The notes under the pieces were generated by a model. The model saw nothing but the letters and a program-made list of their open reading frames with translations, did not search any database and was not told the origin of the DNA. Shown here in pieces: positions 2,643 through 54,299 of a stretch of 64,000 nucleotides of DNA. Numbering within the stretch: the first letter of the stretch is position 1; each line of letters opens with the position of its first letter. Where the stretch lies: the NCBI RefSeq assembly GCF_058153355.1, contig NZ_CM177019.1; one strand, written 5' to 3'. Both the position numbers and the translations under genes were made by a program.

Positions 2643-2755
2643 GAAACGGAGCGGCACCTCTTTTAACCCTTGAAGTCACTGCCCGTTTCGAGAGTTTCTC
2701 AACTCGAATAACTAAAGCCAACGTGAACTTTTGCGGATCCCCAGGATCCGCTTTT
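2643..2755 (+). ncRNA. oxyS: OxyS small regulatory RNA, divergent from oxyR
   Basis: Sequence gaaacggagcggcacctcttttaacccttgaagtcactgcccgtttcgagagtttctcaactcgaataactaaagccaacgtgaacttttgcggatccccaggatccgc matches the OxyS sequence from memory; ends in a hairpin plus T-run. Confidence 0.85.
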
Positions 2756-2759
2756 TTTT
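2733..2759 (+). terminator. intrinsic terminator of oxyS
   Basis: Inverted repeat gcggatcc-cca-ggatccgc followed by ttttttttt. Confidence 0.8.
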
Positions 2760-2798
2760 ATTCTACAGGCCCACAGCAAGAGAGCCTGATAGTAACAG

Positions 2799-7222: not shown

Positions 7223-7282
7223 AAATCTGTTTCCTTATTTTGAAATTCAATGCCGGAAAGCTACGTCTCCGGCTAACAAAAC

Positions 7283-9224: not shown

Positions 9225-10376
9225 ATGAAAAACAAATTACCGCCATTTATCGAGATTTACCGTGCTCTGATTGCCACACCTTCAATAAGCGCCACGGAAG
9301 AGGCACTCGATCAAAGCAATGCAGATTTAATCACTCTACTGGCGGACTGGTTTAAAGATTTGGGCTTCAATGTGGAAGTGCAGCCCGTGCCGGGAACTCG
9401 CAACAAATTTAATATGCTAGCCAGTTGCGGACAGGGAGCTGGCGGTTTGCTGCTGGCGGGGCATACCGATACGGTGCCATTTGATGACGGCCGCTGGACG
9501 CGCGATCCGTTTACGCTGACAGAGCATGACGGCAAGCTTTACGGCTTAGGCACCGCCGACATGAAAGGCTTTTTTGCGTTTATCCTCGATGCACTACGCG
9601 ATGTCGACGTCACGAAACTGAAAAAACCGCTCTACATTCTGGCGACTGCCGATGAAGAGACCAGTATGGCAGGAGCGCGTTATTTTGCCGAAACTACCGC
9701 CCTGCGCCCGGATTGCGCCATCATTGGCGAACCGACGTCGCTGCAACCGGTACGCGCGCATAAAGGCCATATCTCGAACGCCATCCGTATTCAGGGCCAG
9801 TCGGGGCACTCCAGCGATCCAGCACGCGGAGTTAACGCGATCGAATTGATGCACGACGCCATCGGGCATATTTTGCAATTGCGCGATAATCTGAAAGAAC
9901 GTTATCACTACGAAGCATTTACCGTGCCATACCCTACGCTCAACCTCGGGCATATTCACGGTGGCGATGCATCTAACCGTATTTGCGCTTGCTGTGAGTT
10001 GCATATGGATATTCGTCCGCTGCCAGGCATGACACTCAATGAACTTAATGGTTTGCTCAACGATGCATTGTCTCCGGTGAGCGAGCGCTGGCCGGGTCGT
10101 CTGACGGTCGACGAGCTGCATCCACCGATCCCTGGCTATGAATGCCCACCGAATCATCAACTGGTTGAAGTGGTTGAGAAATTGCTCGGAGCAAAGACCG
10201 AAGTAGTGAACTACTGTACCGAAGCGCCGTTTATTCAGACGTTATGCCCGACGCTGGTGCTGGGACCTGGCTCAATTAATCAGGCTCATCAGCCTGATGA
10301 ATACCTGGAGACACGGTTTATCAAGCCCACCCGCGAACTGATCACCCAGGTGATTCACCATTTCTGCTGGCATTAA
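9225..10376 (+). CDS. argE: acetylornithine deacetylase
   Basis: ORF 9186..10376; [26 protein letters not shown] onward matches ArgE (383 aa); M20 peptidase family. Confidence 0.95.
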
Positions 10377-10377
10377 A

Positions 10378-10430
10378 ACGTAGGCCAAACAATGTCGGAT
10401 GCGATGCTTGCGCATCTTATCCGACCTACA
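10378..10430. repeat. REP (repetitive extragenic palindromic) element
   Basis: gtaggccaaacaatgtcggatgcgatgcttgcgcatcttatccgacctaca, an imperfect palindrome of the GCCGGATG/ATCCGGC REP type downstream of argE. Confidence 0.7.
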
Positions 10431-10677
10431 CCTTTGGTGTTACTCGAGGCGATTTTTTAACATTTCCATAAGTTACGCTTATTTAAAGCGTCGTGAATTT
10501 AATGGCGTAAATTCCTGCTATTTATTCGTTTGCTGAAGCGATTTCGCAGCATTTGACGTCATCGCTTTTACGTGGCTTTATAAAAGACGACGAAAAGCAA
10601 AGCCCGAGCATATTCGCGCCAATGCGACGTGAAGGATACAGGGCTATCAAACGATAAGATGGGGTGTCTGGGGTAAT

Positions 10678-30171: not shown

Positions 30172-31065
<894 letters not shown>

Positions 31066-31118
31066 TTACCTCATCAATCGCTTGTAGTTATATGTTGTGT
31101 TGTGCACATCTATCCGTT

Positions 31119-31146
31119 TAGACGTCCAGATGTAAAGATGAAGGAA
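31119..31146. promoter_or_regulatory. tandem MetJ boxes in the metF promoter
   Basis: tagacgtccagatgtaaagatgaa: consecutive 8-bp repeats resembling the AGACGTCT met-box consensus, about 60-85 bp upstream of the metF start. Confidence 0.7.
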
Positions 31147-31414
31147 AAGCTGAAGGGCGTCAACCGAAAAATGACCAATGATGGTGAGGAAAAATCAGGG
31201 AAGATGAAAAAAATTCAGGATAAAGGCCAAAGTTCCTCGTACCTGAACATGTGGAATATACCTCATTTAAGATGATATTTATTTGTTTAATTATTTTTTC
31301 TATTAACCGGTGCAACGAGTGTTAAAGCGTGTAATTTTAGGATTATATCAATAGTCACGGTTATACAAACAGTGATAATTTATGAAATAATTTTATTTAC
31401 CAGAGGAATAGCGC

Positions 31415-32389
31415 ATGTATCTTAATACTCAAGTTCAATATAATAAGTTAAATAAAGATGAAAAAAAGATCCTGTTGTTACAAAAGCTAGCCCATTTAAC
31501 TGATTTTACTTTTGACAGAATAGAGACATTTTCAGCATTTGGACAATCTACTGAAACAGGTGTTTTTAAATATAAAGATGGCAATGAATTTGTTGTTGTC
31601 CCCGGGGATACAGTAATATTAGGGTGGGATGCCAGTCTCAATAATATGGATGGTCCGACAAAACAAGAATTTGAAGAGATGTTGGAACCAGAAGGTTTAG
31701 ATTTGAATAATTATCTCACCGACTCTTGCACACCTGTCAGGAAGGTTACAATTTCCCCGATGCTGGTTGAAAGAAACGTTCACGCCGAACCAAGTTGGAA
31801 GGAAGTATCTCTTACGGACCCCCGCATCACAGAGAACAGCATGCTGCAAAAATTTCTGTCTGATTATATGGAAAAAATTAATCCTGGAGTTCACGAATTA
31901 AACGCAAGATTGAAATTACAATATATAGATGGGGATTTATTTGCACAAATATATGAATCAATTAGCTATGATGAGTTACTTCAAAATATCCAAAGCAATA
32001 GTTTTGATCTTCCGAGCGAAGATGAATGGGAATATTTATGTGGCGGTGGTTCCAGGACACTCTGGCGCTGGGGGAATAATTTCGACTATCAAATGAAAAT
32101 CCCATTTATTACTTCAGAAGAACCAACAACCTGGGATATAGAATGGCCTAATCAGTTTGGGTTGCAGATTGCATTTGATCCCTATCTTCAGGAAATTATT
32201 AATGATAAAGATATTCTTCTGAAAGGTGGCGATGGTGGGTGCAATCTCTGCGGAGGTGCTAATGTTGTATTAGGATTCTTGCCTGTGGCAACTTATTACA
32301 AAGGATATAATAAACATACGGACGAATTAGAATATATGGATGACATTGGAGACAATTATACTTCTTATCGCAGAATAATTCGTTTATGA
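31415..32389 (+). CDS. hypothetical protein, FGE-sulfatase (SUMF1/EgtB/PvdO-like) domain suspected
   Basis: 324-aa ORF, very AT-rich by eye; motifs FVVVPGDTVILGWDAS, SEDEWEYLCGGGSRTLWRWGNNF and NQFGLQI resemble the MVxIPGGxFxMG, AEWEYAxRGG...PWG and NxxGLxDM motifs of formylglycine-generating-enzyme-like domains; no signal peptide. Confidence 0.5.
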   Translation: MYLNTQVQYNKLNKDEKKILLLQKLAHLTDFTFDRIETFSAFGQSTETGVFKYKDGNEFVVVPGDTVILGWDASLNNMDGPTKQEFEEMLEPEGLDLNNYLTDSCTPVRKVTISPMLVERNVHAEPSWKEVSLTDPRITENSMLQKFLSDYMEKINPGVHELNARLKLQYIDGDLFAQIYESISYDELLQNIQSNSFDLPSEDEWEYLCGGGSRTLWRWGNNFDYQMKIPFITSEEPTTWDIEWPNQFGLQIAFDPYLQEIINDKDILLKGGDGGCNLCGGANVVLGFLPVATYYKGYNKHTDELEYMDDIGDNYTSYRRIIRL

Positions 32390-32440
32390 GTAAAAATTAT
32401 ATTTCAGGACAAGAAGTTATGCTCGGGTCAAGCTAATGAA

Positions 32441-33952
32441 TTGCTTAACGCAAGGAATAAAAACGTATTGATGAACACTGGGAATTTCGAGTCGATACAA
32501 ATCATGATCGACGCGCAAGAGTGGCGTAGCCTGCCGCTGCATCTGCGTCTGTATCACGCTTTTCGCCAATTGGTGATTTCCGGCGCATTGTCTGATGGCG
32601 CAAAACTGCCTTCCGCTCGCGCACTGGCCCAGCAACTTGGTCTTTCCAGAGATACCATCGAAAATGCCTATTCCCAGCTCCACCGCGACGGTTTTATGGC
32701 TCGCAGGCAGGGGGCCGGGAGTTTCGCCAGCCGCCAGGGGATACCGCATATTCAGGGCCAGCATGCGCAACCACCCTCGCCCGGACAAGTACCGGCTTTA
32801 AGCGCTCGCTGGCAGCCAATTGCCGATCGCGCAGTCTCTTTCGATGCCCGCCAGATGCAGACCTTTACGCTTGGCCTGCCGGAAACGCGAAACTTCCCGC
32901 TAAACATTTGGCAGAACTTTTCCCGCCAGATCCAACGTGAGCAGGCACATACGCTGATGTTAAATAGCGATCCGCAGGGCGAGCCACAGCTGCGCCAGCA
33001 AATTGCGCATTACCTTAATTTTGAACGCGGCGCGAAGGTAGATGCCGGGCAGATTGTGATTGTCAGCGGCGCACGGCAGGCGTTCTGGCTGTGCGGGCAA
33101 CTGCTGGCAGAGGCCGGACAGTCGGTGGCGATGGAAAATCCGGGCTATCCCGGCGCGCGTCAGGCGTTTTCTGCCGCACAGCTTAATCTTCTTCCCGTTG
33201 AAGTGGATGACGCCGGGATCCGGGTGGATAAACTGCCGCCCGCGCCGCTGGTTTACGTCACGCCCTCGCACCAGTTTCCTTCCGGTCATTTGCTCACGCT
33301 GGCGCGGCGTCATGCCCTGATTGCCTGGGCGCAGGCGCACAATGCGTGGATTATCGAAGACGACTACGACAGCGAATTTCACTACACCAGCGCGCCCGTC
33401 GCCTGTCTGCAAGGGTTAGACTGCGAGCAACGCACCCTGTATGTCGGCACTTTCAGCAAAACGCTCTATCCCGGCCTGCGCATCGGTTATCTGGTGGTGC
33501 CGACGTCGCTGGCTGCGCACTTTGCCGCCGCGCGTAATTTGCTTGATGGCGCAACGCCTGCGTTATCCCAACTAACGCTGGCGCGATTTATCGAGTCCGG
33601 TCATTTTGCCGCCCATATTCGCAACATGCGTAGTATGTATGCGGTGCGACAGGGGTGCCTGGCAGAGGCTATTCATCAGCACTTAAGTGAATGGGTCACG
33701 CCAGTGGTGACATCCGGTGGATTGCAAATGCCCTGCTGGCTGCATGGAGGTATTGATGAGCAACAGACGCTGAATGCCGCGCGCCGCGCCGGGTTAAACA
33801 TCGCCGGAATGCGCCAGTTCTGGCTGACGCACCCCGCGCACGCGGGCTGGCTGCTGGGATTCGCCGCCTTTACCCCCTACGAGATTGAACAGGGCGTCAA
33901 GCGTCTGCGGGCTGCATTATGCACTGAAAACGTGCGCCCAGCCGGGTCATAA
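32441..33952 (+). CDS. MocR/GabR-type regulator (GntR HTH fused to a PLP aminotransferase-like domain)
   Basis: 503-aa ORF; N-terminal GntR-like HTH (LPSARALAQQLGLSRDTIENAYSQLHRDGFMARRQGAGSF) followed by a roughly 350-aa aminotransferase class I/II-like region; true start may be an internal Met; GC-rich by eye. Confidence 0.8.
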   Translation: MLNARNKNVLMNTGNFESIQIMIDAQEWRSLPLHLRLYHAFRQLVISGALSDGAKLPSARALAQQLGLSRDTIENAYSQLHRDGFMARRQGAGSFASRQGIPHIQGQHAQPPSPGQVPALSARWQPIADRAVSFDARQMQTFTLGLPETRNFPLNIWQNFSRQIQREQAHTLMLNSDPQGEPQLRQQIAHYLNFERGAKVDAGQIVIVSGARQAFWLCGQLLAEAGQSVAMENPGYPGARQAFSAAQLNLLPVEVDDAGIRVDKLPPAPLVYVTPSHQFPSGHLLTLARRHALIAWAQAHNAWIIEDDYDSEFHYTSAPVACLQGLDCEQRTLYVGTFSKTLYPGLRIGYLVVPTSLAAHFAAARNLLDGATPALSQLTLARFIESGHFAAHIRNMRSMYAVRQGCLAEAIHQHLSEWVTPVVTSGGLQMPCWLHGGIDEQQTLNAARRAGLNIAGMRQFWLTHPAHAGWLLGFAAFTPYEIEQGVKRLRAALCTENVRPAGS

Positions 33953-33956
33953 TCTC

Positions 33957-35003
33957 CTACGGGATGGTGTTGCAGGCAGCGGCAACCTGTTCCAGCGTCT
34001 GGCCTGCGCCAATAAATTCCACCTTATCGCCCGCTGTCGGCGTGACGGAGCTGGCATCGACCATAAAGCTGTCCATACAAACCCGCCCCAATACCGGTAA
34101 CCGCACGCCGCGCCAGCATACGCCCGCCGGAGGACGCATATTTCGCGGAACGCCATCCGCGTAACCCGCGGATATCGTAGCGATACGCAGCGGACGCGTG
34201 GCGGTAATCGTGCTGCCGTAGCCAACTGGCGTTCCCGCCGGGACATCCTGCACGCGCAGAATAGTTAGCGTCAGCGTAAAAGCCGGTTTTAGCGGCCTGG
34301 AAAACCACGGCTGGGCGACGCCAAACAGCGCAATCCCCGGACGGCAGAGATCTTCCCGCCAACCTGGTTGCAAAAACATTCCGCAGGAGTTCGCCAGCGA
34401 AAATCGGCTGCTGGGGAAAACCGTTTTTGCCTGCTGGAATAGCGCGTGTTGCGCCATATTTAACGCATGATCCGGCCTGTCGGCGTTCGCCAGATGGCTG
34501 ATGATATAGTCCGGCGCAGGCCAGTTACGCTCACGAAAAATCGCCGCCAGACGCATCAGTTGTTGCGGCATCATGCCCAGCCGCGACATACCAGAATCGA
34601 GCTGAATCATCACCGCGCTCCGTTGCTGGCGCGTTTCCAGTAACGTAAGCCACGCCATCACCTGGTCTACGGAATTGAGCAATGGCGTGATCTGCTGCGC
34701 GTAACAATACGCCATCGCCTCCGGCATAACCCCATTAAGCACTACCACCATCGCATCAGTGGGCAGGATTTTACGCAACGCCACGCCTTCAGAAAGCTGT
34801 GCGACAAAAAAGATCCGGCAGTTCGCCGCATACAGGGCGGGCGCAATCGCCTCCGCCCCCAGACCATAGGCATTGGCTTTCAACACCGCGCCACATTGCG
34901 CAGGGGCAGCATGGCGGGCCAGCATACGATAATTGTCGACGATGGCGGCGCGATTAACGCACATAACACCGCACGCCGCCTGGATTTCAGTAGAAGTCAT
35001 CAT
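33957..35003 (-). CDS. alanine racemase-family PLP enzyme (amino-acid racemase, specificity unknown)
   Basis: 348-aa ORF; VLKANAYGLG (PLP-lysine motif, cf. VVKANAYGHG in Alr) and SAGYADGVPR (cf. MGYGDGYPR catalytic Tyr region). Confidence 0.8.
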   Translation of the reverse strand: MMTSTEIQAACGVMCVNRAAIVDNYRMLARHAAPAQCGAVLKANAYGLGAEAIAPALYAANCRIFFVAQLSEGVALRKILPTDAMVVVLNGVMPEAMAYCYAQQITPLLNSVDQVMAWLTLLETRQQRSAVMIQLDSGMSRLGMMPQQLMRLAAIFRERNWPAPDYIISHLANADRPDHALNMAQHALFQQAKTVFPSSRFSLANSCGMFLQPGWREDLCRPGIALFGVAQPWFSRPLKPAFTLTLTILRVQDVPAGTPVGYGSTITATRPLRIATISAGYADGVPRNMRPPAGVCWRGVRLPVLGRVCMDSFMVDASSVTPTAGDKVEFIGAGQTLEQVAAACNTIP

Positions 35004-36238
35004 TAATAAGGCAACGGGTAGCGGTTGGTTAGTTGTATTACTTTTTGCTCAATATCGGCGCAAATGTCTGCAATATCTGATGAATTAATGGCGAAAATAA
35101 TTTCACTTATCCAGTCGGCAATCAGCGCAAAGTCATCCGCCTTCATCCCACGCGTGGTGCAGGCCGCGCTGCCAATACGAACGCCGGAGGTAATCAACGG
35201 CGGCTGCGGATCGCCCGGCAGGGTGTTTTTATTGACCGTGATCCCCGCCAGTTCGAGAAAGTACTCCACCTGTGCGCCGGTTAACCCCTGCGGGCGCAGG
35301 TCGATAATCCCCAGATGGCAGTCGGTGCCGTCCGTTAACAGCGTCAGGCCGCGCAGCGCCAGTTGCTGGCACATCGCCTGCGCATTGTCGATAACCTGCC
35401 CGGCATAACGTTTAAATTCCGGTTGTAATGCCTCGCCAAGCGCCACCGCTTTCGCTGCGATAACGTGCATCAACGGCCCGCCCTGCAAACCGGGAAAAAT
35501 GGCACTGTCGATTTTTTTCGCAAGCCTGGCGTCGTTGGTGAGGATCATGCCGCCGCGCGGCCCGCGCAATGTTTTATGCGTGGTGGTGGTGACCACATCA
35601 GCATACGCCAGCGGCGAAGGGAAACAGCCGCCCGCCACCAGCCCGGCAAAGTGCGCCATATCCACCAGCAAAATGGCGTCAACGGCATCGGCAATGCGGC
35701 GAAAACGGGCAAAATCATAGTGACGTGGATAAGCCGATCCTCCGGCAATAATCAACCGCGGGCGCTCACGCAGCGCGATCATCTCGACCTGATCCATATC
35801 AATCAAACCACTGTGCGCATCGACGCCATAGTGAAAAGCGTTAAACCATTTGCCGGATTGATTGACCGGCGAACCGTGCGTGAGATGCCCGCCGCATTGC
35901 AGGCTCATGCCAAGAATTTTGTCGCCGGGTTTCAGCAACGCCAGATGGACCGCCTGATTCGCCTGGCTGCCGGAGTGAGGCTGCACATTGACGTAACGCG
36001 CGCCAAAGAGCTGCTGCGCGCGGGTTATCGCCAGCATCTCAACCTCATCAATAAACTTACAGCCGCCGTAATAGCGATGCTGGTAATAACCTTCGGCGTA
36101 TTTATTGGTTAACACCGACCCCTGCGCCGCGAGAACGGCGGGGCTTACGAAATTCTCCGAGGCAATCAGTTCCAGCGACTGCTGCTGGCGCTGTTGCTCC
36201 TGGTTAATCAATGCAAAAAGTGGATCGTTATTTATCAT
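35003..36238 (-). CDS. serine hydroxymethyltransferase-family PLP enzyme (GlyA paralog)
   Basis: ORF 35003..36304; from [30 protein letters not shown] collinear with E. coli GlyA including [16 protein letters not shown] (PLP lysine); start at the internal Met preceded by gggggaag is more plausible, coordinate +/- a few bases. Confidence 0.85.
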
Positions 36239-36513
36239 GCGCTTCCCCCGCAAATTCATCATGCGATGATTTTCGCAGGGAAAACCTCGTCCGCACCCTG
36301 CCACTTTTTTGGGCAGGTGCAGACCACCTGTATGTCGTATTACTTAAAAGAAGAGAACATCGCTGACAATACCGGTATTAACTCCGAAATGAAGAGGGAA
36401 GAAGGCTCCGGCCATCTCCATGTGCGATTCTGGCTAGTAAAACATCATATTCCAGCTGCTCTTATCCGCCTACGTTATTGCATATACGGATAAGGCAGCC
36501 TCAATACGTACTT

Positions 36514-38067
36514 TTACTTGATATCTTTCACGCGCATACCGTTGATCTGTTCATCCGTGATGGTGTTACCCGCTTTAAAGTAATCAACCACCGCGTGATA
36601 AACGTAATAACCGCCCGTCGTATTGCGCGCTTTACCCTCGGTAAACGCGGTAAAACCATCTCCACCATCAGCAAGGAAACTCTGAGTGGCAATGTGGTAA
36701 ACCGTCGCATCTTCAATCGGTTTGCCATTCAAAGTCAGTGAGATAACCCGCTGACCAACCGGCTTGCTGCTGTCGTACTTCATTTCCAGGCCTTTCGATA
36801 CCTGTAAAACGCCATTACTTAAACTTGCGCCGTGTTCCATCAAACTGCGTAATTGTTTACCCGTGAGTTCCATCGTCACCAGTTCGTTGGGGAACGGGAA
36901 GGTACTGATGACGCCACCCATCGTAATTGCACCCGCCGGGATCTCATTGCGGATACCGCCAGAGTTGGTTAACGCCAACTGGGTATTTTTACCCGCCGCT
37001 GCCAGTAAAGCATCTGCCGCCAGGTTCCCGAGAGAAGCCGATTCACCATAGGCACGTTTTAGTTCAACCGGCGATTGCGCCACCGTTTGCTGCACGACTT
37101 CATCCAGCTTTTTATTCCAACTATCAATCACCTGTTTTGTTTGCGGATCGGGCTTCCACTCGTCGGCGTAAAGGGTTTTAAGCTCGAAGTTTTTCACCGT
37201 AAAAGTGTGCGGCTTCTCTTTGTAGTCCAGTACCAGTTTACCCACATCAATCCCACCGCTGTCAGTGGAGAGGATGAGCGTATTGCCGACTTTAATCGGT
37301 TCCGGCGTACCCACATGTGCATGCCCGGTGATCAAAATATCCAGCCCTTTCACCTGACTTGCCGTCTGAATATCTTTATCCAGTGCGCGGCGCACATCTG
37401 TGCCCCCCATACTGGACTGGCGGGCCGGAACACCTTCGTGAATCAGCGCAACGGTCAAATCAACCTTGCCTTTGAGTTCATCGATATAACGTTGTAGCCA
37501 TTTAATTTCATCACGCGCCTCAATACCCACTCGCGTTGCCGCAGATACCGTATCATTAAAGGCAAATACACCGTGCAAACCAATCACGCCAATTTTCACG
37601 CCGTCTTTTTCAATGATGGTATAGGGCTTATCCCAGAATGATTTACTGCTGTTCTGATAAAAAACATTACCCTGCACAATCGGGAATTTTGCCTGACTCA
37701 ACTGTAATAACGTATTGTCCCAGCCGTGATCAAATTCATGATTACCTATAGTGGCCGCATCGAACGGCATGGTATTCATAATATCGATAATCGCCTTGCC
37801 TTTAGTCAGGCTGCTGATATACGGCCCGGTAAAATAGTCACCCGCATCAAAAAACCAGGTCGCTTTGTTTTTAGCTTTTTCTTGTTTAACAAGCGTAGTG
37901 ATATTTGCCCAGCCGCCAATATCTCGTTTACCGTCAGCAATCCACGGCACTTTATAAGGCTCTACATGTGCATGGAGGTCGTTGGTATAAATGATGGTGA
38001 CATCTTTGGCGCAAGCCCAAAACGGCAGTGTTAATGCGATACCCGCAGCAAGCATTTTAATTTTCAT
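36514..38067 (-). CDS. secreted 5'-nucleotidase / metallophosphoesterase-family protein (UshA-like), paralog 1
   Basis: ORF 36514..38073; signal peptide [20 protein letters not shown]; calcineurin-like motifs NDLHAH, GDYFTG, GNHEFD, ITGHAHV and a C-terminal 5'-nucleotidase-type region; start trimmed to the ATG preceded by a purine-rich SD. Confidence 0.85.
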
Positions 38068-38125
38068 AAACAATCCCTTCCAGTGAGATAAAGGATTGCT
38101 ACATTACGTTCTGAAAGGCTTTTTT

Positions 38126-38143
38126 ATGTGAGAATACTCACAT
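38126..38143. promoter_or_regulatory. 7-4-7 inverted repeat (candidate operator) in the divergent promoter region between the paralog-1 nucleotidase and the zinc-ribbon protein gene
   Basis: atgtgag-aata-ctcacat lies centrally in the 132-bp divergent intergenic region 38068..38199. Confidence 0.4.
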
Positions 38144-38199
38144 CCAGAGGCGATAACTGTAGGACAAAATCAACGACCTTATGAAATCGTTGGTGATAT

Positions 38200-39327
38200 A
38201 TGTCAAATCTGTTTGCGATTAATGTCTGTAAAACGTTCGGTTGTCGAAATTTGGGATTGGCCTCATCGGAAGATTACAGTTGGCCAGACTATAAACTGGG
38301 TTTTCCGGCACTGCACTGCCAGGCATGCGGAAGTTACCCCCCTTTGTTTGATGAACAACAATTTCGTGACTGGTTGTCAGTTCACATGACTGCGTGTGCC
38401 ATAGAAACAGGGCATTTTTGTCCATCATGCTATTGTAAAGAAAAGATTTTTTATGGCCACAACCCGCAGGGAACACAACGCGTTCAATGCCGTTCATGCA
38501 AAAAAGTCTGGACTCCGAAACAGCAGCCAGCAAGAGAAATTACGTATCCCCAGTCCATTGAAACCGTTCAACTGTTCATGCCCTTTCAAGGAGCCAGCGC
38601 AGTACAAAAGCTCTATGTTTTAGTCAGTCTTGACGCCACTCGTGGCAACATCCTTCATCTCTCCACGAATTATACGCAACATCAGACAGGAGACAGTCTG
38701 CGGTACAGTTACAGAGGCAATACAGAACCAACTGAGCACCATAGCGATATTGTGCAGAGGGTAGATATGCGTGAAGCGCAATTCTTGCGCCGGAGCCAGT
38801 TCGATGAAATTCAGTATGGCAGTGCTGTGCTCAAGCGCAACGGCAAGGGAGCCATACTACGCCCGGTTATCACGGCACACGGGCATTTCAGAATACTGAA
38901 AATCCGCTTTCCACATGTCAAAACGCATATCATTTCACACGAATGTTTTCTGAGAGGCGCAATTATTACAGCCTGGGCAGATCAGTTCCGCCAACAACAA
39001 GGCGAACTTTGGTTCGTAGAAGAAGAAATCAGCGACCGTAACGCTGATATTCCCTGGCATTTTCAGGGAACGACATACCATGGTTGGTGGCAAAATCAGT
39101 GGCAACGCTGGGGGCAGGGGAATAACAGCAAGATGGTCTGCCTGCTCACAGGAGTCTCCTTAGAAAGGGGCGCAAATGTTTCTCTGGCAACCAGTCGTTG
39201 CTTTATCACATGGCTGACAGACCAACACGACTTTACCCAAAGCGCGTTATTATCCGCAGGTCGCGTAACGAAAATGCTGACCTCACTGGCGTTAAAATAC
39301 AATGAATCGCTCAATCCATCTTGTTAG
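38200..39327 (+). CDS. hypothetical Cys-rich protein with N-terminal zinc-ribbon(s), possibly transposase-derived DNA-binding protein
   Basis: 375-aa ORF; Cys pairs CKTFGC...CQAC and CPSCYCKEK-x14-RVQCRSCKKVWT resemble the IS1 InsA / IS1595-type zinc ribbon (CPSC...QRYLCSHCRKTWQ); remainder not recognisable; no signal peptide. Confidence 0.45.
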   Translation: MSNLFAINVCKTFGCRNLGLASSEDYSWPDYKLGFPALHCQACGSYPPLFDEQQFRDWLSVHMTACAIETGHFCPSCYCKEKIFYGHNPQGTQRVQCRSCKKVWTPKQQPAREITYPQSIETVQLFMPFQGASAVQKLYVLVSLDATRGNILHLSTNYTQHQTGDSLRYSYRGNTEPTEHHSDIVQRVDMREAQFLRRSQFDEIQYGSAVLKRNGKGAILRPVITAHGHFRILKIRFPHVKTHIISHECFLRGAIITAWADQFRQQQGELWFVEEEISDRNADIPWHFQGTTYHGWWQNQWQRWGQGNNSKMVCLLTGVSLERGANVSLATSRCFITWLTDQHDFTQSALLSAGRVTKMLTSLALKYNESLNPSC

Positions 39328-39556
39328 TCAATACACTCGACAAACGACCATAAATTAATGGGATCACTATTTCTCATTTAATTAAATATATGAATGTATG
39401 ACTGAAAAATATAATCACAGTCAATGTTTAATTAATAACATTATTTGTTACTAAGATCACATAATACTTTCCTGACCTATGCTTACATAAAAATAAGACA
39501 CGGAGTTCCTTTTATTTAAATAATTCAACCAATGTAACAACCCCTATCAAGGAGGG

Positions 39557-41110
39557 ATGATGAGAACTGTATTTACGACTTTATCAGTCATATTCAGCGT
39601 GATGTTTTCTCACAGTATACTAGCTCAGGACGTTACTATTTATTATACGAATGATATTCACGCACATGTCAATCCGGCAAAAATTCCCGCTGTTGATAAG
39701 AACAGACTTGTAGGTGGTATGGCTAATATTGCAGGCATCGTTAATGAAGCGAAGAAAAAAAACAAAGATGTCTTTTTCTTTGATGCAGGCGACTATTTTA
39801 CCGGTCCGTATATCAGTACCCTGACCAAAGGTGAAGCTATTATTGATATCATGAACACCATGCCCTTTGATGCGGTATCCGTTGGTAATCACGAGTTCGA
39901 TCACGGCGTGCCCAATATGGTATCTCAGTTATCAAAAGCAAAATTCCCCATTCTGCTGGGAAATATTTACTACACCGATACAAATAAACCAGTTTGGGAT
40001 CATCCGTGGACCATTATCGAAAAAGATGGTTTAAAGATTGGTGTGATTGGATTGCATGGTGCATTCGCTTTCTATGATACAGTCGCGGCAAAAGCACGTG
40101 AAGGCGTAGAAGCCAGAGACGAAATTAAATATTTAAATAAAGCACTTGCAGAATTAAAAGGTAAAGTCGACATTACCGTTTTGCTAATTCACGAAGGTGT
40201 TCCGGCGCGTCAATCAAGCTTTGGTAGTAAAGATGTGGAGCGGCTACTACAGGCAGATATTGAGACAGCTAAAAAAGTGAATGGTGTTGATGTCTTAATT
40301 ACCGGTCACGCACATGTCGGAACACCGCAACCAATAAAAGTTAATAACACATTAATTGTATCTACCGATGCATACGGCACCGACATCGGAAAACTTGTGC
40401 TTGATTACAATCCGAAAACGAAGAAAATTGATAGTTATAATGGTGAGTTAATCACCATCTTCGCAGATCAATTTAAACCTGACACCATCGTTCAAAATAC
40501 TATCGATAAATGGAGTGCAAAGCTTAACAAAATAACACAGGAAGTTGTCGGCCATTCTCCCGTAGTTTTAACACGTGAGTATGGCAGTTCTTCTTCTACC
40601 GGTAACCTTATTCTTGATGCAATGATGGAAAAAACACCAGATGCCATTGCCGGATTTCAAAATAGCGGTGGGATGCGAGCTGATTTTCCTAAAGGTGATA
40701 TCACGCTGGGAGATGTTATTAGCACATTCCCCTTTAATAATGACCTCATCGAGATGGATTTGACGGGCCGCGATCTCAAATCGTTGATGACGCATGCAAC
40801 CAATCTAACTAACGGTGTGTTACAGGTTTCAAAAAGCGTTGCGGTTGTCTATGACAGCAAAAAACCACTGAACCAACGGTTAATCTCTTTCACCATTAAC
40901 GGCAAACCCGTGGAAGATAATCAAACATATCGTATTGTCACGCACTCCTTTTGTGCCAGTGGTGGTGACGGTTTTGAAGCATTTTTGAATGGAAAAAATG
41001 TGAAGACGATACCGGGAACAACCTCGGCGGAATCTATCATCGATTATTTCAAAAATCATAAACCTGTCACCCCAGACTTAACTAAACGAGTAATGGACGT
41101 CGCCAAATAA
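39557..41110 (+). CDS. secreted 5'-nucleotidase / metallophosphoesterase-family protein, paralog 2
   Basis: 517-aa ORF, AT-rich; signal peptide MMRTVFTTLSVIFSVMFSHSILA; same motif set (NDIHAH, GDYFTG, GNHEFD, ITGHAHV); collinear with paralogs 1 and 3. Confidence 0.85.
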   Translation: MMRTVFTTLSVIFSVMFSHSILAQDVTIYYTNDIHAHVNPAKIPAVDKNRLVGGMANIAGIVNEAKKKNKDVFFFDAGDYFTGPYISTLTKGEAIIDIMNTMPFDAVSVGNHEFDHGVPNMVSQLSKAKFPILLGNIYYTDTNKPVWDHPWTIIEKDGLKIGVIGLHGAFAFYDTVAAKAREGVEARDEIKYLNKALAELKGKVDITVLLIHEGVPARQSSFGSKDVERLLQADIETAKKVNGVDVLITGHAHVGTPQPIKVNNTLIVSTDAYGTDIGKLVLDYNPKTKKIDSYNGELITIFADQFKPDTIVQNTIDKWSAKLNKITQEVVGHSPVVLTREYGSSSSTGNLILDAMMEKTPDAIAGFQNSGGMRADFPKGDITLGDVISTFPFNNDLIEMDLTGRDLKSLMTHATNLTNGVLQVSKSVAVVYDSKKPLNQRLISFTINGKPVEDNQTYRIVTHSFCASGGDGFEAFLNGKNVKTIPGTTSAESIIDYFKNHKPVTPDLTKRVMDVAK

Positions 41111-41144
41111 AATATCATTTATCAGTCTATTTATTTAACAAGGA

Positions 41145-42770
41145 ATGCGAATGAAAACAGTGCAGCGTACTTTACTTGCCGCAACATTGCTGACTATTTT
41201 TTCGGTCTCAGCCATGGCGCAGGATGTCACGATTATTTATACCAATGATCTTCACGCTCATGTGGATTCTTATAAAGTGCCGTATATCGCAGACGGAAAA
41301 CGCGACATTGGCGGCTTTGCCAATATATCTACTTTAGTAAAACAAGAGAAAGCGAAAAATAAAGCCACCTTTTATTTTGATGCTGGAGACTATTTCACCG
41401 GCCCTTATATCAGCAGTCTGACAAAGGGCGAAGCAATAATTGACATTATGAATACCATGCCTTTTGACGCAGTATCAATCGGTAATCATGAGTTTGACCA
41501 TGGCTGGGATAATGCCCTGCGACAATTAAGCAAAGCGAATTTTCCTGTTTTATTGGGCAATGTTTATCATAAAGAGAGTGAGAAACCCTTCTGGAACAAG
41601 CCCTACACCATCCTGGAAAAAGATGGCATCAAGATTGGTATTATTGGGCTACACGGCGTATTTGCATTTAATGATACGGTCTCGGAGCTCTCTCTCCAGG
41701 GACTCGATAATGACAATAATAACCGCTTTGATAAATCTTCCGAGACCCTTAAGAATCAGGGGATTGAAGCACGTGATGAAGTGAAGTATTTGCAGCATTA
41801 TATCGACGAGTTACGTGATAAGGTTGACCTCACTGTGGCGCTGGTTCATGAAGGCGTTCCGGCGCGTCAGTCCAGCATTGGCATTACAGATGTTAGACGC
41901 GCTCTTGATAAAGATATTCAAACCGCTAGCAAGGTGAAAGGATTGGATATTCTGATTACCGGGCATGCCCACGTCGGAACGCCAGAACCAATCAAAGTCG
42001 GCAACACCTTAATCCTTTCAACTGATAGTGGCGGTATCGATATTGGTAAATTAGTCCTTGATGTCAACCCTACAGCTCGTACCCATAAAATGAAGAGCTT
42101 TGAGCTGAAAACAGTTTATGCCGATGAATGGATACCCGATCCAACGACACAAAAAGTTATCAATGGCTGGAATAAAAAACTGGCGGATATTGTACGCCAA
42201 CCAGTGGGTGAATCATCGATTGCATTAACTCGCGCCTATGGTGAGTCATCGCAACTAGGCAACCTGTTTACCGATGCAATGCTTGTCGCTGCTCCGACTG
42301 CACAGATTGCATTGATAAACTCCGGCAGCTTACGTGCGGATATAAATGCAGGCACGATTACCTTTGGCGACATTACCAGTACATTCCCCTTCAAGAATGA
42401 ACTTACTGAAATGGATCTCAGCGGTAAGGATCTGCGTAACCTACTGGAACACGGGGCATCGCTTACCAATGGCATCCTGCAAATGTCAAAAGGCGCAGAA
42501 ATGCGCTATACCCCGCAGAAACCAGTAGGTCAGCGCATAGTATCTTTTAAAATTAATGGTGAAGAGATCGTTGATACGAATATTTACCATGTTGCAACAA
42601 CGACTTTCCTTGCACTGGGGGGCGATGGTTTTCTGGCATTCAAAGAAGGGAAAAATGTTCAGGTCCGCGCCGGAAAAAACATGTCCGATGTCGTGATCGA
42701 TTATTTGAAGAAAGGCCACAAGATTACGCCTGCACAGGTAAATGAAATGCGGGTGGACGTTAGCAAATAA
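41145..42770 (+). CDS. secreted 5'-nucleotidase / metallophosphoesterase-family protein, paralog 3
   Basis: 541-aa ORF; signal peptide MRMKTVQRTLLAATLLTIFSVSAMA; highly similar to paralog 1 but with an extra Asp/Asn-rich insertion of about 25 aa (SELSLQGLDNDNNNRFDKSSETLKNQG). Confidence 0.85.
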   Translation: MRMKTVQRTLLAATLLTIFSVSAMAQDVTIIYTNDLHAHVDSYKVPYIADGKRDIGGFANISTLVKQEKAKNKATFYFDAGDYFTGPYISSLTKGEAIIDIMNTMPFDAVSIGNHEFDHGWDNALRQLSKANFPVLLGNVYHKESEKPFWNKPYTILEKDGIKIGIIGLHGVFAFNDTVSELSLQGLDNDNNNRFDKSSETLKNQGIEARDEVKYLQHYIDELRDKVDLTVALVHEGVPARQSSIGITDVRRALDKDIQTASKVKGLDILITGHAHVGTPEPIKVGNTLILSTDSGGIDIGKLVLDVNPTARTHKMKSFELKTVYADEWIPDPTTQKVINGWNKKLADIVRQPVGESSIALTRAYGESSQLGNLFTDAMLVAAPTAQIALINSGSLRADINAGTITFGDITSTFPFKNELTEMDLSGKDLRNLLEHGASLTNGILQMSKGAEMRYTPQKPVGQRIVSFKINGEEIVDTNIYHVATTTFLALGGDGFLAFKEGKNVQVRAGKNMSDVVIDYLKKGHKITPAQVNEMRVDVSK

Positions 42771-42792
42771 TAAAAAAATTATAATGCCATTC

Positions 42793-42826
42793 ATTCACTG
42801 AATGGCATTATTTTCTCTAAATCAAC
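42793..42826 (+). terminator. intrinsic terminator after nucleotidase paralog 3
   Basis: aatgccattcattcactgaatggcatt inverted repeat followed by attttctc. Confidence 0.65.
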
Positions 42827-42847
42827 AATAGATAATGAGATATATTT

Positions 42848-43708
42848 ATGTGTATAAAAAAGCACGGGATAGCTTTATCGATTCTATTAATACCTTGCAT
42901 TGGAAACGCTCAGGAAATTAAAAGTGAGGAAGGCTGGTTACATCAAAGCTTGAATGTCATTGGTCGCACAGACTCTCGCTTTGGCCCAAGGCTGACTAAC
43001 GACCTCTACCCTGAATATACTGTAGCAGGAAGAAAAGACTGGTTTGATTTTTATGGTTATGTTGATCTACCAAAATTCTTTGGCGTCGGCAGTCACTATG
43101 ATGTTGGGATCTGGGATGAGGGCTCACCACTATTTACGGAAATAGAACCTCGGTTTTCCATTGACAAATTGACCGGATTAAATCTTGCGTTCGGCCCTTT
43201 TAAAGAATGGTTCATTGCAAACAACTATGTCTATGATATGGGTGACAACCAGTCATCCCGGCAAAGTACATGGTATATGGGGCTTGGTACAGATATCGAC
43301 ACGGGTCTACCAATTAAGCTTTCTGCCAATATATACGCCAAGTATCAGTGGCAAAACTATGGTGCCGCTAATGAAAATGAATGGGACGGATATCGATTCA
43401 AAATAAAATATAGCATTCCTCTTACCCATTTATTCGGAGGGCGATTGGTATACAATAGTTTTACTAACTTTGATTTTGGATCCGATCTTGCGGACAAATC
43501 ACACAATAATAAACGAACCAGTAATGCTATTGCTTCAAGCCATATCCTTTCCCTGCTATATGAACACTGGAAATTTGCATTTACACTACGTTATTTTCAC
43601 AACGGTGGACAATGGAATGCTGGGGAGAAAGTTAACTTCGGAGATGGTCCATTTGAATTAAAAAACACAGGATGGGGAACCTATACTACTATTGGTTATC
43701 AATTTTAA
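42848..43708 (+). CDS. Tsx-family outer-membrane nucleoside-specific channel protein (paralog of tsx)
   Basis: 286-aa ORF, AT-rich; signal peptide then blocks matching E. coli Tsx from memory ([97 protein letters not shown]) and a C-terminal aromatic residue. Confidence 0.85.
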
Positions 43709-43854
43709 ATCAGGTGATGTTTTAGATATTTTTACTTAATGCCATTTTGTAATTGTCATAAATAACTTCACCATTCACACTGTGAATTCATCGCTCAACA
43801 CAAAAGCCCCCTTATTACCGGGGCACTGACCAAAGGCAAAATGACAATCAATCA

Positions 43855-43876
43855 CCACCTCCGCAGGAGGTGGTTT
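43855..43876 (+). terminator. terminator hairpin after the Tsx-like gene
   Basis: ccacctccgcaggaggtgg followed by ttt. Confidence 0.5.
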
Positions 43877-43887
43877 AGAGGTGACAA

Positions 43888-43914
43888 CAAAAGCTGGCAA
43901 CTGCCAGCTTTTGT
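43888..43914 (-). terminator. terminator hairpin immediately downstream of metL
   Basis: aaaagctggcaactgccagctttt palindrome flanked by A/T runs, directly 3' of the metL stop on the minus strand. Confidence 0.6.
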
Positions 43915-43924
43915 TCAATAATCA

Positions 43925-46357
43925 CTACAACAACTGCGCCAGACGGTTAATATCCGACTGAATCGCCCCGGCGGTGACGTCGCGCCCTGCGCCTGGCCCA
44001 CGGATCACCAGCGGGTTGTCGCGATACCAGCGGCTTTCGATGGCAAAGACGTTATCGCACGGTAGTAGTGATGCCAGCGGATGGTCTTCTCGCACCGCTT
44101 CCACGCCTACTCGCGCTTTGCCGTTAGCATCGAAACGCGCCACGTAGCGCAACACCAGCCCCATTTCACGGGCCGCTTCCAACCGTTGTACCATCTGCTC
44201 ATTAAGTTCATCGCCATTTTCAAAGAAATGGTCGATGCTGCCACCTTCGCAATGGGTTGGCACCAGTGATTCAACACGCACCTGGTCCGGTTCAATGTTG
44301 TAACCCGCTTCACGCGCCAGAATCACCAGCTTGCGCATCACATCTTTGCCGGAGAGGTCATCACGCGGGTCAGGTTCAGTTAAGCCCTGCTGCCACGCCT
44401 GATCCACCAGCTCAGTAAACGGCACGCTACCGTCGAATTGCAGGAACAGCCAGGAGAGCGTGCCGGAGAAGATCCCGCTGATCGACAAAATAGTGTCGCC
44501 GCTGTCGATCAGATCGCGCACGGTATGGTTGATCGGCAAACCTGCGCCGACGGTGGCGTTGTATAGCCAGTGACGCCCGGTTTTTTCGAACGCGTCGTGG
44601 ATCTGTCGATATTTATTGCTGTCGCTGGCTCCCGCCAGTTTGTTGGCACTGATGACGTGGAAACCGTGGCTGGCGAAATCGAGATACTGATCAGCAAGCT
44701 GCTGGCTGGCAGTAACGTCCAGCACCACTAAATCATCATACGGATGGGCACGCATCCACAGGAACAGCGACTCTTCATCCTGTTCGACGGCTTCATCATT
44801 AAAGAAGGCTAGCGCACGGCTGGCGTCCAGCCCGTCATAGCTCAACAGGCTGCGACGGCTGTCCACCACGCCTGCCAGCACAAATTCAAAGCCGGTGCGC
44901 GCCGAGAGCGTGCTCTGCTCACGGGCGAACAGTTCCAGCCAGCGGGAACCGATATTGCCCTTACCGAACAATACCAGGCCGATGCGTTTTTCTGCGCGGA
45001 AGACGGACTGATGCAGCCCCTGAATCAGGCTTTCGGTCGGCCCGGTGCGCAGTACTGCCACCAGGCTGATGCCGTCATCGGACTGCCAGGTAAACTCGAC
45101 CGGCTGGCCTTTCAGTTGCTGCCAGAAGCGGTGGCAATGCAGCGGGTTACGGGTGACGCCCGCCCCAACCATCGCCACCAGCGCCAGCCCCTGACGCAGG
45201 CGCAGTTCGCCGGGTAATCCTGCTTCGTCGAGGATTTTCAGCGCACTGTCGGCCACTTCCGAGGTGTAGCAAAATTGCAGCAACTGGCGATCGTTATGCA
45301 CGCCAACTGCCAGTGGGCGCACCTGAGCACGTTTCAGGATTTGGTCGATCTCTTTATGCGCCAGTTTAAAATCCTGACTGGCGGGCACCTGAAACTCAAT
45401 CAAACAGACATCATCGTGGCTGGTGACAATACGCGCGCCAGTACCTGAGGCCAGCACGCGTTCAATACGCGTAGATCCTTGATCCGGTGTATAGCTACAG
45501 CGCAGCTGCAGGTCGATTTCGCTGCCAGAAACTGGCTGTAAAGTACGCGCGTGCAACACTGGCGCGGCAAGACGCGCCAGTTCACTGGCTTCATCAAGAC
45601 GCAGCAATGGCAGCAGACAGGCATCTTTCACTTTACGCGGGTCGGCACTATATACCCCGGCGACATCGCTCCAGATGGTTACGCGGGAAACCCCCGCCAG
45701 CGCACCGATTTGTGTCGCGGAATAGTCGGAACCGTTACGCCCCAGCAGCACCGTTTCACCGGCGTTGTTACGGCTGATAAACCCGGTCACCACCAGACGT
45801 TTGCCCGGATGTTGTACCAGTAGCTGTTGCAGCAACGGGTAAGAAAGCCCTTCATCAACCTGCGGCTGCGCGGCGCGTTCAGCGCGTAAAAACTCGCGGG
45901 CATCAAGCCAGGCCGCTGGCAGCCCTTGTTGATTAAGTACCGCAGACATCAGGCGCGCCGACCACACTTCACCGTGGCCCACCACTTCCGCATACACCGC
46001 ATCGTTAATACCGCTGTCGAGCAGCGCCGCCAGGCGTTCCAGATCGCTGACAAAAGCGCTAATGAGGCTATCGGCTTCTTCAGCGGGTAGCAGGCCGCTA
46101 ATCAGATCGCACTGATAGCGACGCAGCGTTTGTTGAACCTGATGCGCAGAGAGACGATCGGTCTGGCTTAGTTTCAACCAGTTAATCAACTGGTTAGTGG
46201 TGCTACCGGCGGCGGAAACCACCATCATATCGTCAGGCTGAGAGTACTCCGCCATAATGCCCGCGACACGCAAATAACACTTCACATCAGCCAGACTACT
46301 GCCACCAAATTTATGCAGTTGACGACCTTTCGCCCCTGCCTGCGCAATCACACTCAT
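43925..46357 (-). CDS. metL: bifunctional aspartokinase II / homoserine dehydrogenase II
   Basis: 810-aa ORF MSVIAQAGAKGRQLHKFGGSSLADVKCYLRVAGIMAEYSQPDDMMVVSAAG. Confidence 0.96.
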   Translation of the reverse strand: MSVIAQAGAKGRQLHKFGGSSLADVKCYLRVAGIMAEYSQPDDMMVVSAAGSTTNQLINWLKLSQTDRLSAHQVQQTLRRYQCDLISGLLPAEEADSLISAFVSDLERLAALLDSGINDAVYAEVVGHGEVWSARLMSAVLNQQGLPAAWLDAREFLRAERAAQPQVDEGLSYPLLQQLLVQHPGKRLVVTGFISRNNAGETVLLGRNGSDYSATQIGALAGVSRVTIWSDVAGVYSADPRKVKDACLLPLLRLDEASELARLAAPVLHARTLQPVSGSEIDLQLRCSYTPDQGSTRIERVLASGTGARIVTSHDDVCLIEFQVPASQDFKLAHKEIDQILKRAQVRPLAVGVHNDRQLLQFCYTSEVADSALKILDEAGLPGELRLRQGLALVAMVGAGVTRNPLHCHRFWQQLKGQPVEFTWQSDDGISLVAVLRTGPTESLIQGLHQSVFRAEKRIGLVLFGKGNIGSRWLELFAREQSTLSARTGFEFVLAGVVDSRRSLLSYDGLDASRALAFFNDEAVEQDEESLFLWMRAHPYDDLVVLDVTASQQLADQYLDFASHGFHVISANKLAGASDSNKYRQIHDAFEKTGRHWLYNATVGAGLPINHTVRDLIDSGDTILSISGIFSGTLSWLFLQFDGSVPFTELVDQAWQQGLTEPDPRDDLSGKDVMRKLVILAREAGYNIEPDQVRVESLVPTHCEGGSIDHFFENGDELNEQMVQRLEAAREMGLVLRYVARFDANGKARVGVEAVREDHPLASLLPCDNVFAIESRWYRDNPLVIRGPGAGRDVTAGAIQSDINRLAQLL

Positions 46358-48842: not shown

Positions 48843-49094
<252 letters not shown>

Positions 49095-49098
49095 CTAA

Positions 49099-51456
<2,358 letters not shown>

Positions 51457-53700: not shown

Positions 53701-53768
53701 TAATTGCATTATGCCCCGTACTTTTGTACGGGGTTTGTACTCTGTATTCGTAACCAAGGGGTCAGCTC

Positions 53769-54299
53769 GTGACAACTATAGTAAGCGTACGCCGTAACGG
53801 CCATGTGGTCATCGCTGGTGATGGTCAGGCCACGTTGGGCAATACCGTAATGAAAGGTAACGTGAAAAAGGTCCGCCGTCTGTACAACGACAAAGTCATC
53901 GCGGGCTTTGCGGGCGGTACTGCGGATGCTTTTACGCTGTTCGAACTGTTTGAACGTAAACTGGAAATGCATCAGGGCCATCTGGTCAAAGCCGCCGTTG
54001 AACTGGCAAAAGACTGGCGTACCGATCGCATGTTACGCAAACTTGAAGCACTGCTGGCAGTCGCGGATGAAACCGCTTCACTGATCATCACCGGTAACGG
54101 TGACGTGGTGCAGCCAGAAAACGATCTTATTGCTATCGGCTCCGGCGGCCCTTACGCCCAGGCTGCGGCGCGCGCGCTGTTAGAAAACACTGAACTAAGC
54201 GCCCGTGAAATTGCTGAAAAGGCGTTGGATATTGCAGGCGACATTTGCATCTATACCAACCATTTCCACACCATCGAAGAATTAAGCTACAAAGCGTAA
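53769..54299 (+). CDS. hslV: ATP-dependent protease subunit HslV
   Basis: 176-aa ORF (GTG start) [31 protein letters not shown]-terminal Thr nucleophile. Confidence 0.96.

Follow-up and report, generated by a model that had tools for sequence, protein, structure and literature searches.

The stretch of DNA considered here (the window) comprises 64,000 nucleotides of the Escherichia coli contig NZ_CM177019.1 (NCBI RefSeq assembly GCF_058153355.1). It carries, between metF and the metL-metB-metJ genes, an island encoding three 5'-nucleotidase-family enzymes (nt5-1, nt5-2, and nt5-3) and a Tsx-family nucleoside channel (tsx2). The original prediction, made from the letters alone, placed three full-length nucleotidase genes of 517, 517, and 541 amino acids (aa) and one tsx gene within positions 36514-43708; the open reading frames (ORFs), Pfam, and NCBIfam agree with this description. 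The listing of ORFs with their translations, however, yields five genes in this interval, not four. The fifth, a 375-aa gene at 38200-39327, had been overlooked, as had the CRP sites and the topology of Tsx. The features of the island are the following:

36514..38067, minus strand: nt5-1, predicted periplasmic 5'-nucleotidase-family enzyme, 517 aa from the RefSeq-annotated ATG (ORF, NCBIfam, Pfam)
38068..38199, no strand: divergent control region of 132 bp between nt5-1 and the 375-aa gene (CRP motif, cross-genus conservation)
38127-38142, no strand: perfect match to the CRP site TGTGA-N6-TCACA, TGTGAGAATACTCACA, ~1 bp off the midpoint of the divergent region (motif match)
38171-38192, no strand: inverted repeat CAACGAcc-N-TCGTTG, then GGTGAT, just upstream of the start codon of the 375-aa gene (alignment)
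38200..39327, plus strand: 375-aa gene (zinc ribbons, RNase H-like domain)
39446-39461, plus strand: CRP-like site with one mismatch, TGTTACTAAGATCACA, in the 229-bp gap upstream of nt5-2 (motif match)
39557..41110, plus strand: nt5-2, predicted periplasmic 5'-nucleotidase-family enzyme, 517 aa (ORF, NCBIfam, Pfam, tree)
41145..42770, plus strand: nt5-3, predicted periplasmic 5'-nucleotidase-family enzyme, 541 aa, 34 bp after nt5-2 (ORF, NCBIfam, Pfam, tree)
42781..42811, plus strand: hairpin with a 13-bp stem between nt5-3 and tsx2 (inverted-repeat/hairpin analysis)
42848..43708, plus strand: tsx2, Tsx-family outer-membrane nucleoside channel, 286 aa (NCBIfam, Pfam, alignment)
43854..43915, no strand: terminator hairpins in the gap between tsx2 and the convergent metL (hairpin analysis)

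The three nucleotidases share a two-domain architecture, in which an N-terminal calcineurin-like metallophosphoesterase domain (Metallophos, PF00149) is followed by a C-terminal 5'-nucleotidase substrate-binding domain (5_nucleotid_C, PF02872). Together with tsx2, which matches Channel_Tsx (PF03502, E 5.6e-70), all four proteins of the original prediction match the expected Pfam families. The metal-binding motifs, predicted to be intact, are so: NDxHAH, GDYFTG, GNHEFD, and GHAHV are invariant across the three copies. In the alignment to K-12 UshA, using the metal and catalytic residues of the Knofel and Strater structures, D41, H43, D84, N116, H117, D120, H217, and H252 are kept in nt5-1, nt5-2, and nt5-3, and with them the dimetal ligands and the catalytic His-Asp dyad. 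The nucleoside-binding residues R410, F429, N431, F498, and D504 are also retained in all three, F429 and F498 forming the Phe clamp. By these residues, the nt5 proteins are dimetal 5'-nucleotidase-family enzymes with a predicted phosphoesterase activity.

The likeness to UshA covers the two-domain architecture, the dimetal site, the His-Asp dyad, the Phe base clamp, and the periplasmic location (predicted in the case of the island enzymes). In contrast, the identity to UshA amounts to 24-27%, Q254 is a His in all three nt5 proteins, the R375/R379 region is reduced to a shorter loop with a single Arg, and UshA is a core gene located elsewhere. The suggestion that the copies might be UshA-, NadN-, or CpdB-like does not survive comparison with NCBIfam, as all three proteins score far below the cut-offs: 153, 165, and 156 bits against 600 for the UshA equivalog (NF007109), 122-134 bits against 436 for the NadN NAD nucleotidase (nicotinamide adenine dinucleotide, NAD; TIGR01530), and 81-105 bits, over the N-terminal domain only, against 486 for CpdB (NF006938). 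A match to SoxB, of the same superfamily, reaches ~150 bits, far below its cut-off of 550. The best-scoring relatives outside the subfamily that are characterised or of solved structure are the Thermus thermophilus 5'-nucleotidase (PDB 2Z1A, E 1e-46) and the C-terminal, 5'-nucleotidase half of Bacillus subtilis YfkN (NF006934, 189-199 bits). YfkN, however, is a fused trifunctional, wall-associated protein, about 27-28% identical to the nt5 proteins, and the scores are far below the cut-offs.

Plausible signal peptides, as in the original prediction, are indicated in the three nt5 proteins and tsx2 by a heuristic check: Sec-type n/h/c regions and -3/-1 sites are seen in all four, with putative cleavage at ACA|KD, ILA|QD, AMA|QD, and GNA|QE, respectively, and the same heuristic check finds no lipobox in any of them. 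A periplasmic location of nt5-1, nt5-2, and nt5-3 is thus plausible and predicted on these features. The deposited structures PDB 3IVD and 3IVE, structural-genomics entries entitled "Nucleotidase", are those of an nt5-1 orthologue (~98% identity over residues 19-517) and are 56% identical to nt5-2, so the fold of the subfamily has already been solved; the crystallised construct starts at about residue 19. This protein is c4898 of CFT073, reportedly crystallised with uridine or cytidine bound. No paper on these structures or on an enzyme assay was found in a literature search.

Pairwise identities among the three copies range from 56 to 68%, and a neighbour-joining tree distributes them over three lineages of a subfamily that is widespread in Enterobacterales. 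nt5-1 belongs to a conserved orthologue group, with 89-98% identity across E. coli, Citrobacter, and Enterobacter, and is by this comparison the conserved core gene of the island. nt5-3, which bears an extra segment of ~20 residues in its N-terminal domain, appears as an older sister of the nt5-1 clade (68% identity). nt5-2 falls in a separate clade, with copies at 70-73% identity in Enterobacter hormaechei and another Enterobacteriaceae genome. According to the tree, these are old paralogues that have come to lie side by side, and they did not arise by recent duplication in place. No substrate-contact residue mapped from UshA differs among nt5-1, nt5-2, and nt5-3, so the distinct specificities that had been proposed for them cannot be read from the sequence.

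The tsx2 product scores 491.8 bits against NCBIfam NF011686 (cut-off 311) and is, by family, a Tsx channel for which nucleoside-selective permeation is predicted. It is 62% identical to K-12 Tsx, with long identical stretches, but the alignment shows a gap of 8 residues close to the N-terminus, and a 5-residue deletion removes K-12 residues 228-232 (AINGI). Should these gaps fall within surface loops, phage T6 and colicin K might meet an altered receptor surface, and carriers might differ in their sensitivity through this second channel. The position also differs from that of K-12 tsx, as tsx2 stands at the end of an nt5 operon. No CRP match with up to one mismatch is found upstream of tsx2, CytR and DeoR sites not having been searched. 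The hairpin at 42781-42811 would be either a weak terminator or attenuator, or a structure of the tsx2 5'-untranslated region (UTR).

The remaining gene encodes a 375-aa protein in which no signal peptide is detected by the heuristic. Eight Cys residues, invariant or nearly so, compose two four-Cys zinc ribbons, the second of which is InsA-like, followed by an RNase H-like domain (AlphaFold model and 46-sequence alignment). Its sole Pfam match is a marginal InsA zinc ribbon, and PHROGs gives only a weak match, to a transposase zinc ribbon. The family of this partner protein is small, with 214 matches in 1.84 billion representative proteins, of which 60 are below 1e-30, and its full-length members are mostly 400-500 aa long. 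The family profile matches residues 4-85 of InsA of the insertion sequence (IS) IS1, spanning the zinc ribbon and the helix-turn-helix (HTH), with 96.7% probability, and hhalign finds no similarity to IS1 InsB (probability 0.2%). With DDE positions mapped from the secondary structure of the predicted model, with no superposition, the expected Asp positions in strand 1 and just after strand 4 are occupied by T/S122 and P222. A single column of the alignment is uniformly acidic (E248, where the helix that follows strand 5 starts); D202 is acidic at 85%. No conserved DDE triad is found in the family on this alignment and model. An active transposase is argued against by the lack of a DDE set, of similarity to InsB, and of terminal inverted repeats around the island, the last looked for in the flanks. 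Furthermore, unlike IS1 InsA and InsAB', the 375-aa gene holds a fixed position between metF and metL beside nt5 in many genera. The active IS1 transposase model (NF033558) gives 20.4 bits, over the zinc ribbon only, against a cut-off of 100. On this evidence, the 375-aa protein reads as a domesticated, catalytically inactive IS1-like protein, and its gene is a candidate regulator derived from an IS1-type transposase.

When the window is compared with the two-gene allele of E. coli (spacer at 7869-8000 of locus L013 against 38068-38199), the synonymous divergence (dS) is 0.32 for nt5-1 and 1.88 for the 375-aa gene. This jump indicates an old recombination whose junction lies within the spacer, and implies that two deeply diverged alleles of the partner gene circulate in E. 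coli.

The association of the partner gene with nt5 extends well beyond E. coli. In a scan of one genome per species, which returned 37 loci, every enterobacterial locus with its upstream flank retained has an nt5 gene directly upstream and divergent, of the nt5-1 type in all but one. The nt5-1/partner pair lies between metF and metL in E. coli, Escherichia whittamii, Citrobacter species, Klebsiella pneumoniae, K. oxytoca, and K. spallanzanii, as well as in Kosakonia, Phytobacter, Kluyvera, Superficieibacter, Pseudocitrobacter, and Salmonella arizonae; this looks like the ancestral position of the pair. Arrays of nt5-3, tsx, nt5-2, and nt5-1 divergent from the partner are found in Enterobacter asburiae, Citrobacter sp. 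wls619, the second locus of one E. coli strain, and Escherichia sp. MOD1-EC7003, and smaller nt5 arrays with a tsx gene in Enterobacter hormaechei and Enterobacter vonholyi. In those arrays the extra genes lie on the nt5-1 side, and in the window downstream of the partner gene, which indicates that similar gene sets were assembled in different orders. Since nt5 and tsx arrays recur in differing orders in Enterobacter, Citrobacter, and other Escherichia, their clustering is not due to chance.

Distant members of the partner family (20-27% identity) are likewise linked to nucleotide genes. In four distant loci, where the partner is ~20-24% identical, it lies immediately downstream of an nt5 gene, co-directional and at 35-103 bp. 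The nucleotidases encoded there are of the same broad subfamily, sharing 31-34% identity with those of the window and 25-27% with UshA. The Providencia partner homologue is found immediately upstream of nt5, and two Motilimonas homologues adjoin a Tsx-family gene, near nupC. This recurring association is strong evidence for a functional link, of which a specific regulator would be the simplest reading. On the nucleotidase side, the Serratia nt5 homologue adjoins nupC-deoCABD and that of Providencia a gene of the PNP/UDP-family phosphorylases. The Tsx-family gene beside the Salmonella homologue shows no BLASTP similarity to tsx2, hence a linkage at the family level only. In a further locus (L020, 2023-5013), a distant partner gene and an operon encoding a porin, a class-B acid phosphatase, and a class-II cyclic-nucleotide phosphodiesterase are transcribed divergently; going by these gene families, the operon is a different extracytoplasmic nucleotide-processing gene set tied to the partner family.

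The control regions of the island bear CRP motifs. TGTGAGAATACTCACA is the sole perfect CRP consensus in the window, and two of the three best CRP matches of the window fall in the two promoter regions of the island. Its half-sites and other blocks of the spacer, among them GCTACNTTACGTTCTGAAAG, are conserved in Citrobacter and Enterobacter hormaechei, and the mean column identity of the spacer across genera is 87%, though the adjacent partner protein is just 62-67% identical. The CAACGA..TCGTTG repeat, invariant in Citrobacter and Enterobacter hormaechei, could be an operator or a 5'-UTR hairpin. The second site, TGTTACTAAGATCACA, is invariant in three E. coli lineages (the window, Nissle 1917, and strain E200086). 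It is followed by a promoter-like match at 39495-39524, such sigma-70 matches being no commoner in the region than in shuffled sequence, so that no promoter is placed here.

The GC content of the island is ~42%, against ~53% in the flanks. The K-12 metF-metL spacer aligns to the window solely at 31032-31221 and from 43926 onward, and the intervening positions 31222-43925 are therefore accessory DNA. Long inverted repeats within the island are the paralogous nt5 genes in opposite orientation. All five island genes are under purifying selection: compared with Nissle 1917, the ratio of nonsynonymous to synonymous divergence (dN/dS) is 0.026 for nt5-1, 0.09-0.11 for nt5-2, nt5-3, and tsx2, and 0.25 for the 375-aa gene, with ranges of 0.026-0.044 for nt5-1 and 0.09-0.25 for the 375-aa gene. 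Against the defence-system models of PADLOC, no island protein gives a match at E <= 0.01.

Over 5426 complete E. coli genomes, 658 carry nt5-2, nt5-3, and tsx2, and 1840 carry at least the pair of nt5-1 and the 375-aa gene. The full form is found in E2348/69, ATCC 25922, Nissle 1917, CE10, and the avian pathogenic E. coli (APEC) strain APEC O2:K1, and most of its carriers possess the 7.6-kb nucleotidase module only (locus L002). Sequence type 131 (ST131) has the two-gene form, and CFT073 carries at least the island tsx2 (tag c4894). RefSeq names the products "bifunctional metallophosphatase/5'-nucleotidase" (three times), "cytoplasmic protein", and "nucleoside-specific channel-forming protein Tsx".

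The metF-metL nucleotidase-Tsx island is thus a known, annotated, and published locus, a possibility envisaged with the original prediction, but its function is not established. In the APEC strain BEN2908, the metL..metF region has been designated "GR 31" (PLoS One 2026, PMC12928451). As described in the available passages of that paper, it contains three UshA-like ORFs of 1554, 1551, and 1620 bp, with 27-28% identity to YfkN, and a Tsx-like ORF of 861 bp with 67% identity to Tsx; the same hypothesis as in the original prediction is offered there, and is hence already in print. These passages take up neither the fifth gene nor the CRP sites, and deal neither with occurrence beyond E. coli nor with the topology. 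A term search of a review of ushA-like genes (PMC10454023) finds no mention of the paralogues or of tsx. The literature search found no functional study of the island genes, and nothing relevant on a second Tsx or on domesticated IS1-type transposases linked to nucleotidases; the sole expression datum found is a 3.3 log2 increase of tsx2 (c4894) on overexpression of TosR in CFT073 (PMC5956150).

Taken together, these features make it reasonably probable that the island is a five-gene accessory module of Enterobacteriaceae, under catabolite control, that widens the use of extracellular nucleotides and nucleosides. This reading builds on computed gene content, domains, residues, selection, distribution, synteny, and CRP motifs; localisation, substrates, CRP control, and the role of the regulator are what we infer from them. 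Catabolic scavenging, the role originally proposed, is indicated by the linkage to tsx, to nupC-deoCABD in Serratia, and to the phosphorylase gene in Providencia, together with the CRP sites. At high cyclic AMP (cAMP)-CRP, when glucose is absent, CRP would bind TGTGAGAATACTCACA midway between nt5-1 and the 375-aa gene, and also the second site upstream of nt5-2, nt5-3, and tsx2. The three nucleotidases would be exported by Sec to the periplasm, which nucleotides would reach via general porins. There, the two-metal centres would strip the 5'-phosphate, and possibly also split diphosphate-linked compounds, and the nucleosides and phosphate would be imported by ordinary inner-membrane carriers. 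The 375-aa protein, as a catalytically dead IS1-like transposase derivative, would most likely be a specific DNA-binding regulator of the nt5 subfamily.

One element of the original proposal has to be turned around, namely that the enzymes supply a dedicated channel with nucleosides. Tsx resides in the outer membrane, whereas the enzymes are predicted to act in the periplasm. Nucleosides formed there have no outer membrane left to cross, so Tsx cannot receive them, and they need inner-membrane carriers such as NupC or NupG. Tsx2 would therefore act in parallel and not downstream, by raising the permeability of the outer membrane to free nucleosides and deoxynucleosides.

Several observations weigh against this scavenging module. 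The E. coli 375-aa protein is gapped over the HTH-like segment present in its full-length relatives, which weakens the argument for DNA binding by the E. coli copy. The arrangement of the distant loci, with a co-directional partner 35-103 bp downstream of nt5, fits a regulator, and also any other functional partner. Control by CRP would follow from sites predicted by motif match only, and the low GC content (~42%) suggests that the island may be silenced by H-NS under laboratory conditions. Finally, an arylsulfotransferase (PF05935), or a sulfatase together with a radical-SAM/SPASM protein, recurs beside the nt5 subfamily in six genera, Enterobacter, Pluralibacter, Silvania, Salmonella, Serratia, and Providencia, and nucleotide scavenging does not explain these recurring sulfur genes. 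The radical-SAM/SPASM protein is, by its family, a candidate sulfatase-maturating enzyme. The sulfur genes lie at 9282-10808 in locus L015, at 1650-3365, 6053-7546, and 10618-12336 in L008, at 7098-8789 in L006, and at 5700-7184 in L004; further loci with such neighbours are L025, L029, L030, L032, and L050.

The nucleotide-scavenging module could be part of a wider picture, which we put forward tentatively. The partner family may consist of domesticated IS1-like transposases that kept their InsA-type zinc ribbons and an RNase H-like core, lost the DDE residues of that core, and were co-opted across Gammaproteobacteria as a dedicated transcription factor, or nucleotide-responsive sensor, of the nt5 subfamily and of the outer-membrane channels associated with it. 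In that case, the E. coli island would represent an expanded regulon of this factor.

Alternatively, the island might be a host-interaction module and a fitness or virulence factor of extraintestinal E. coli, breaking down extracellular nucleotides that serve as signalling or danger molecules (ATP, ADP, AMP, NAD, cyclic dinucleotides), or producing immunosuppressive adenosine, like AdsA, Nt5e, CD73, and CpdB. Such a host-signalling role had been raised with the original prediction, and the case for it is circumstantial: the strains with the full form named above, and CFT073 with at least tsx2, the induction of tsx2 by TosR, a regulator of uropathogenic E. coli, and the description of periplasmic UshA and CpdB as pro-virulent in the abstracts of PMC10454023 and PMC9958556. 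The core pair and expanded arrays occur equally in Citrobacter, Klebsiella, Kosakonia, Phytobacter, Kluyvera, and Enterobacter, however, and the nt5-partner pair in distant loci too. The neighbours elsewhere are catabolic (nupC, deo), the CRP sites point to nutrient control, and periplasmic enzymes would meet host nucleotides solely via porins. We consider this role unlikely as the main function, although it is compatible with scavenging and does not exclude it.

The enzymes might also serve phosphate starvation; under Pho control, they would free the phosphate held in nucleotides or in extracellular DNA, for which UshA and CpdB of Vibrio cholerae are the precedent (PMC4714964). They are of the same enzyme family, and their reaction necessarily yields phosphate, but no Pho-box-like sequence is found in the island, even with 3 mismatches allowed, and the conserved regulatory motif is a CRP site, which makes Pho control quite improbable. 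The recurring arylsulfotransferase and sulfatase neighbours, along with the below-cut-off SoxB match, raise a further possibility, that nt5 is functionally tied to these genes and acts on non-standard substrates, namely sulfated or otherwise modified phosphoesters such as nucleotide sugars or compounds resembling adenosine 5'-phosphosulfate (APS) or 3'-phosphoadenosine 5'-phosphosulfate (PAPS). Yet the island of the window has no sulfur-related gene, the Phe pair of UshA that clamps the nucleoside and the ribose-binding Asp are conserved, the nt5-1 orthologue was reportedly crystallised with uridine and cytidine, and the SoxB score is ~150 bits against a cut-off of 550; we hold such substrates to be very unlikely. 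That the island is a cryptic or decaying horizontal acquisition with no current function, the 375-aa gene being a dead IS remnant, is hardly credible: its low GC, the missing DDE residues and HTH segment, the split or frameshifted copies (e.g., L005, and fragments among the AlphaFold database matches), and one IS1 insertion in strain DA61218 are set against low dN/dS values (0.03-0.11 in the genes of the four secreted proteins, 0.09-0.25 in the 375-aa gene), intact ORFs at a fixed chromosomal position in many genera, and a non-coding control region conserved across genera.

In addition to the nucleotidase island, the accessory DNA contains a second module of ~5 kb, at 31222-36500, between metF and the island. 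It encodes a hypothetical 324-aa protein with no NCBIfam match, a MocR/PdxR-like regulator dependent on pyridoxal phosphate, a protein of the alanine-racemase family, and a serine hydroxymethyltransferase paralogue, and is carried by 3 of the 5426 genomes. The hydroxymethyltransferase paralogue is an intact ORF in the window and an annotated pseudogene in strain 2013C-4282. Elsewhere in the window, Rfam detects the OxyS small RNA (2643-2752), the L31 ribosomal-protein leader (49062-49114), and the ClpQY promoter element (53714-53771), all three being ordinary features of the E. coli chromosome that fit the oxyR...metF...metL...rpmE...hslVU context.

The cluster itself is not new, being annotated in hundreds of complete E. 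coli genomes, with one structure deposited and the hypothesis published. The core pair is present in roughly one third of the complete E. coli genomes, ST131, Nissle 1917, and CFT073 among those named, and the full array in one out of eight. The most interesting thread is the transposase-derived partner gene that travels with the nt5 subfamily, which has not been discussed before. If this partner is indeed the regulator, bacteria would offer in it a clear case of an IS transposase domesticated to control a metabolic regulon, and the control of the nt5 subfamily in many genera would be explained.

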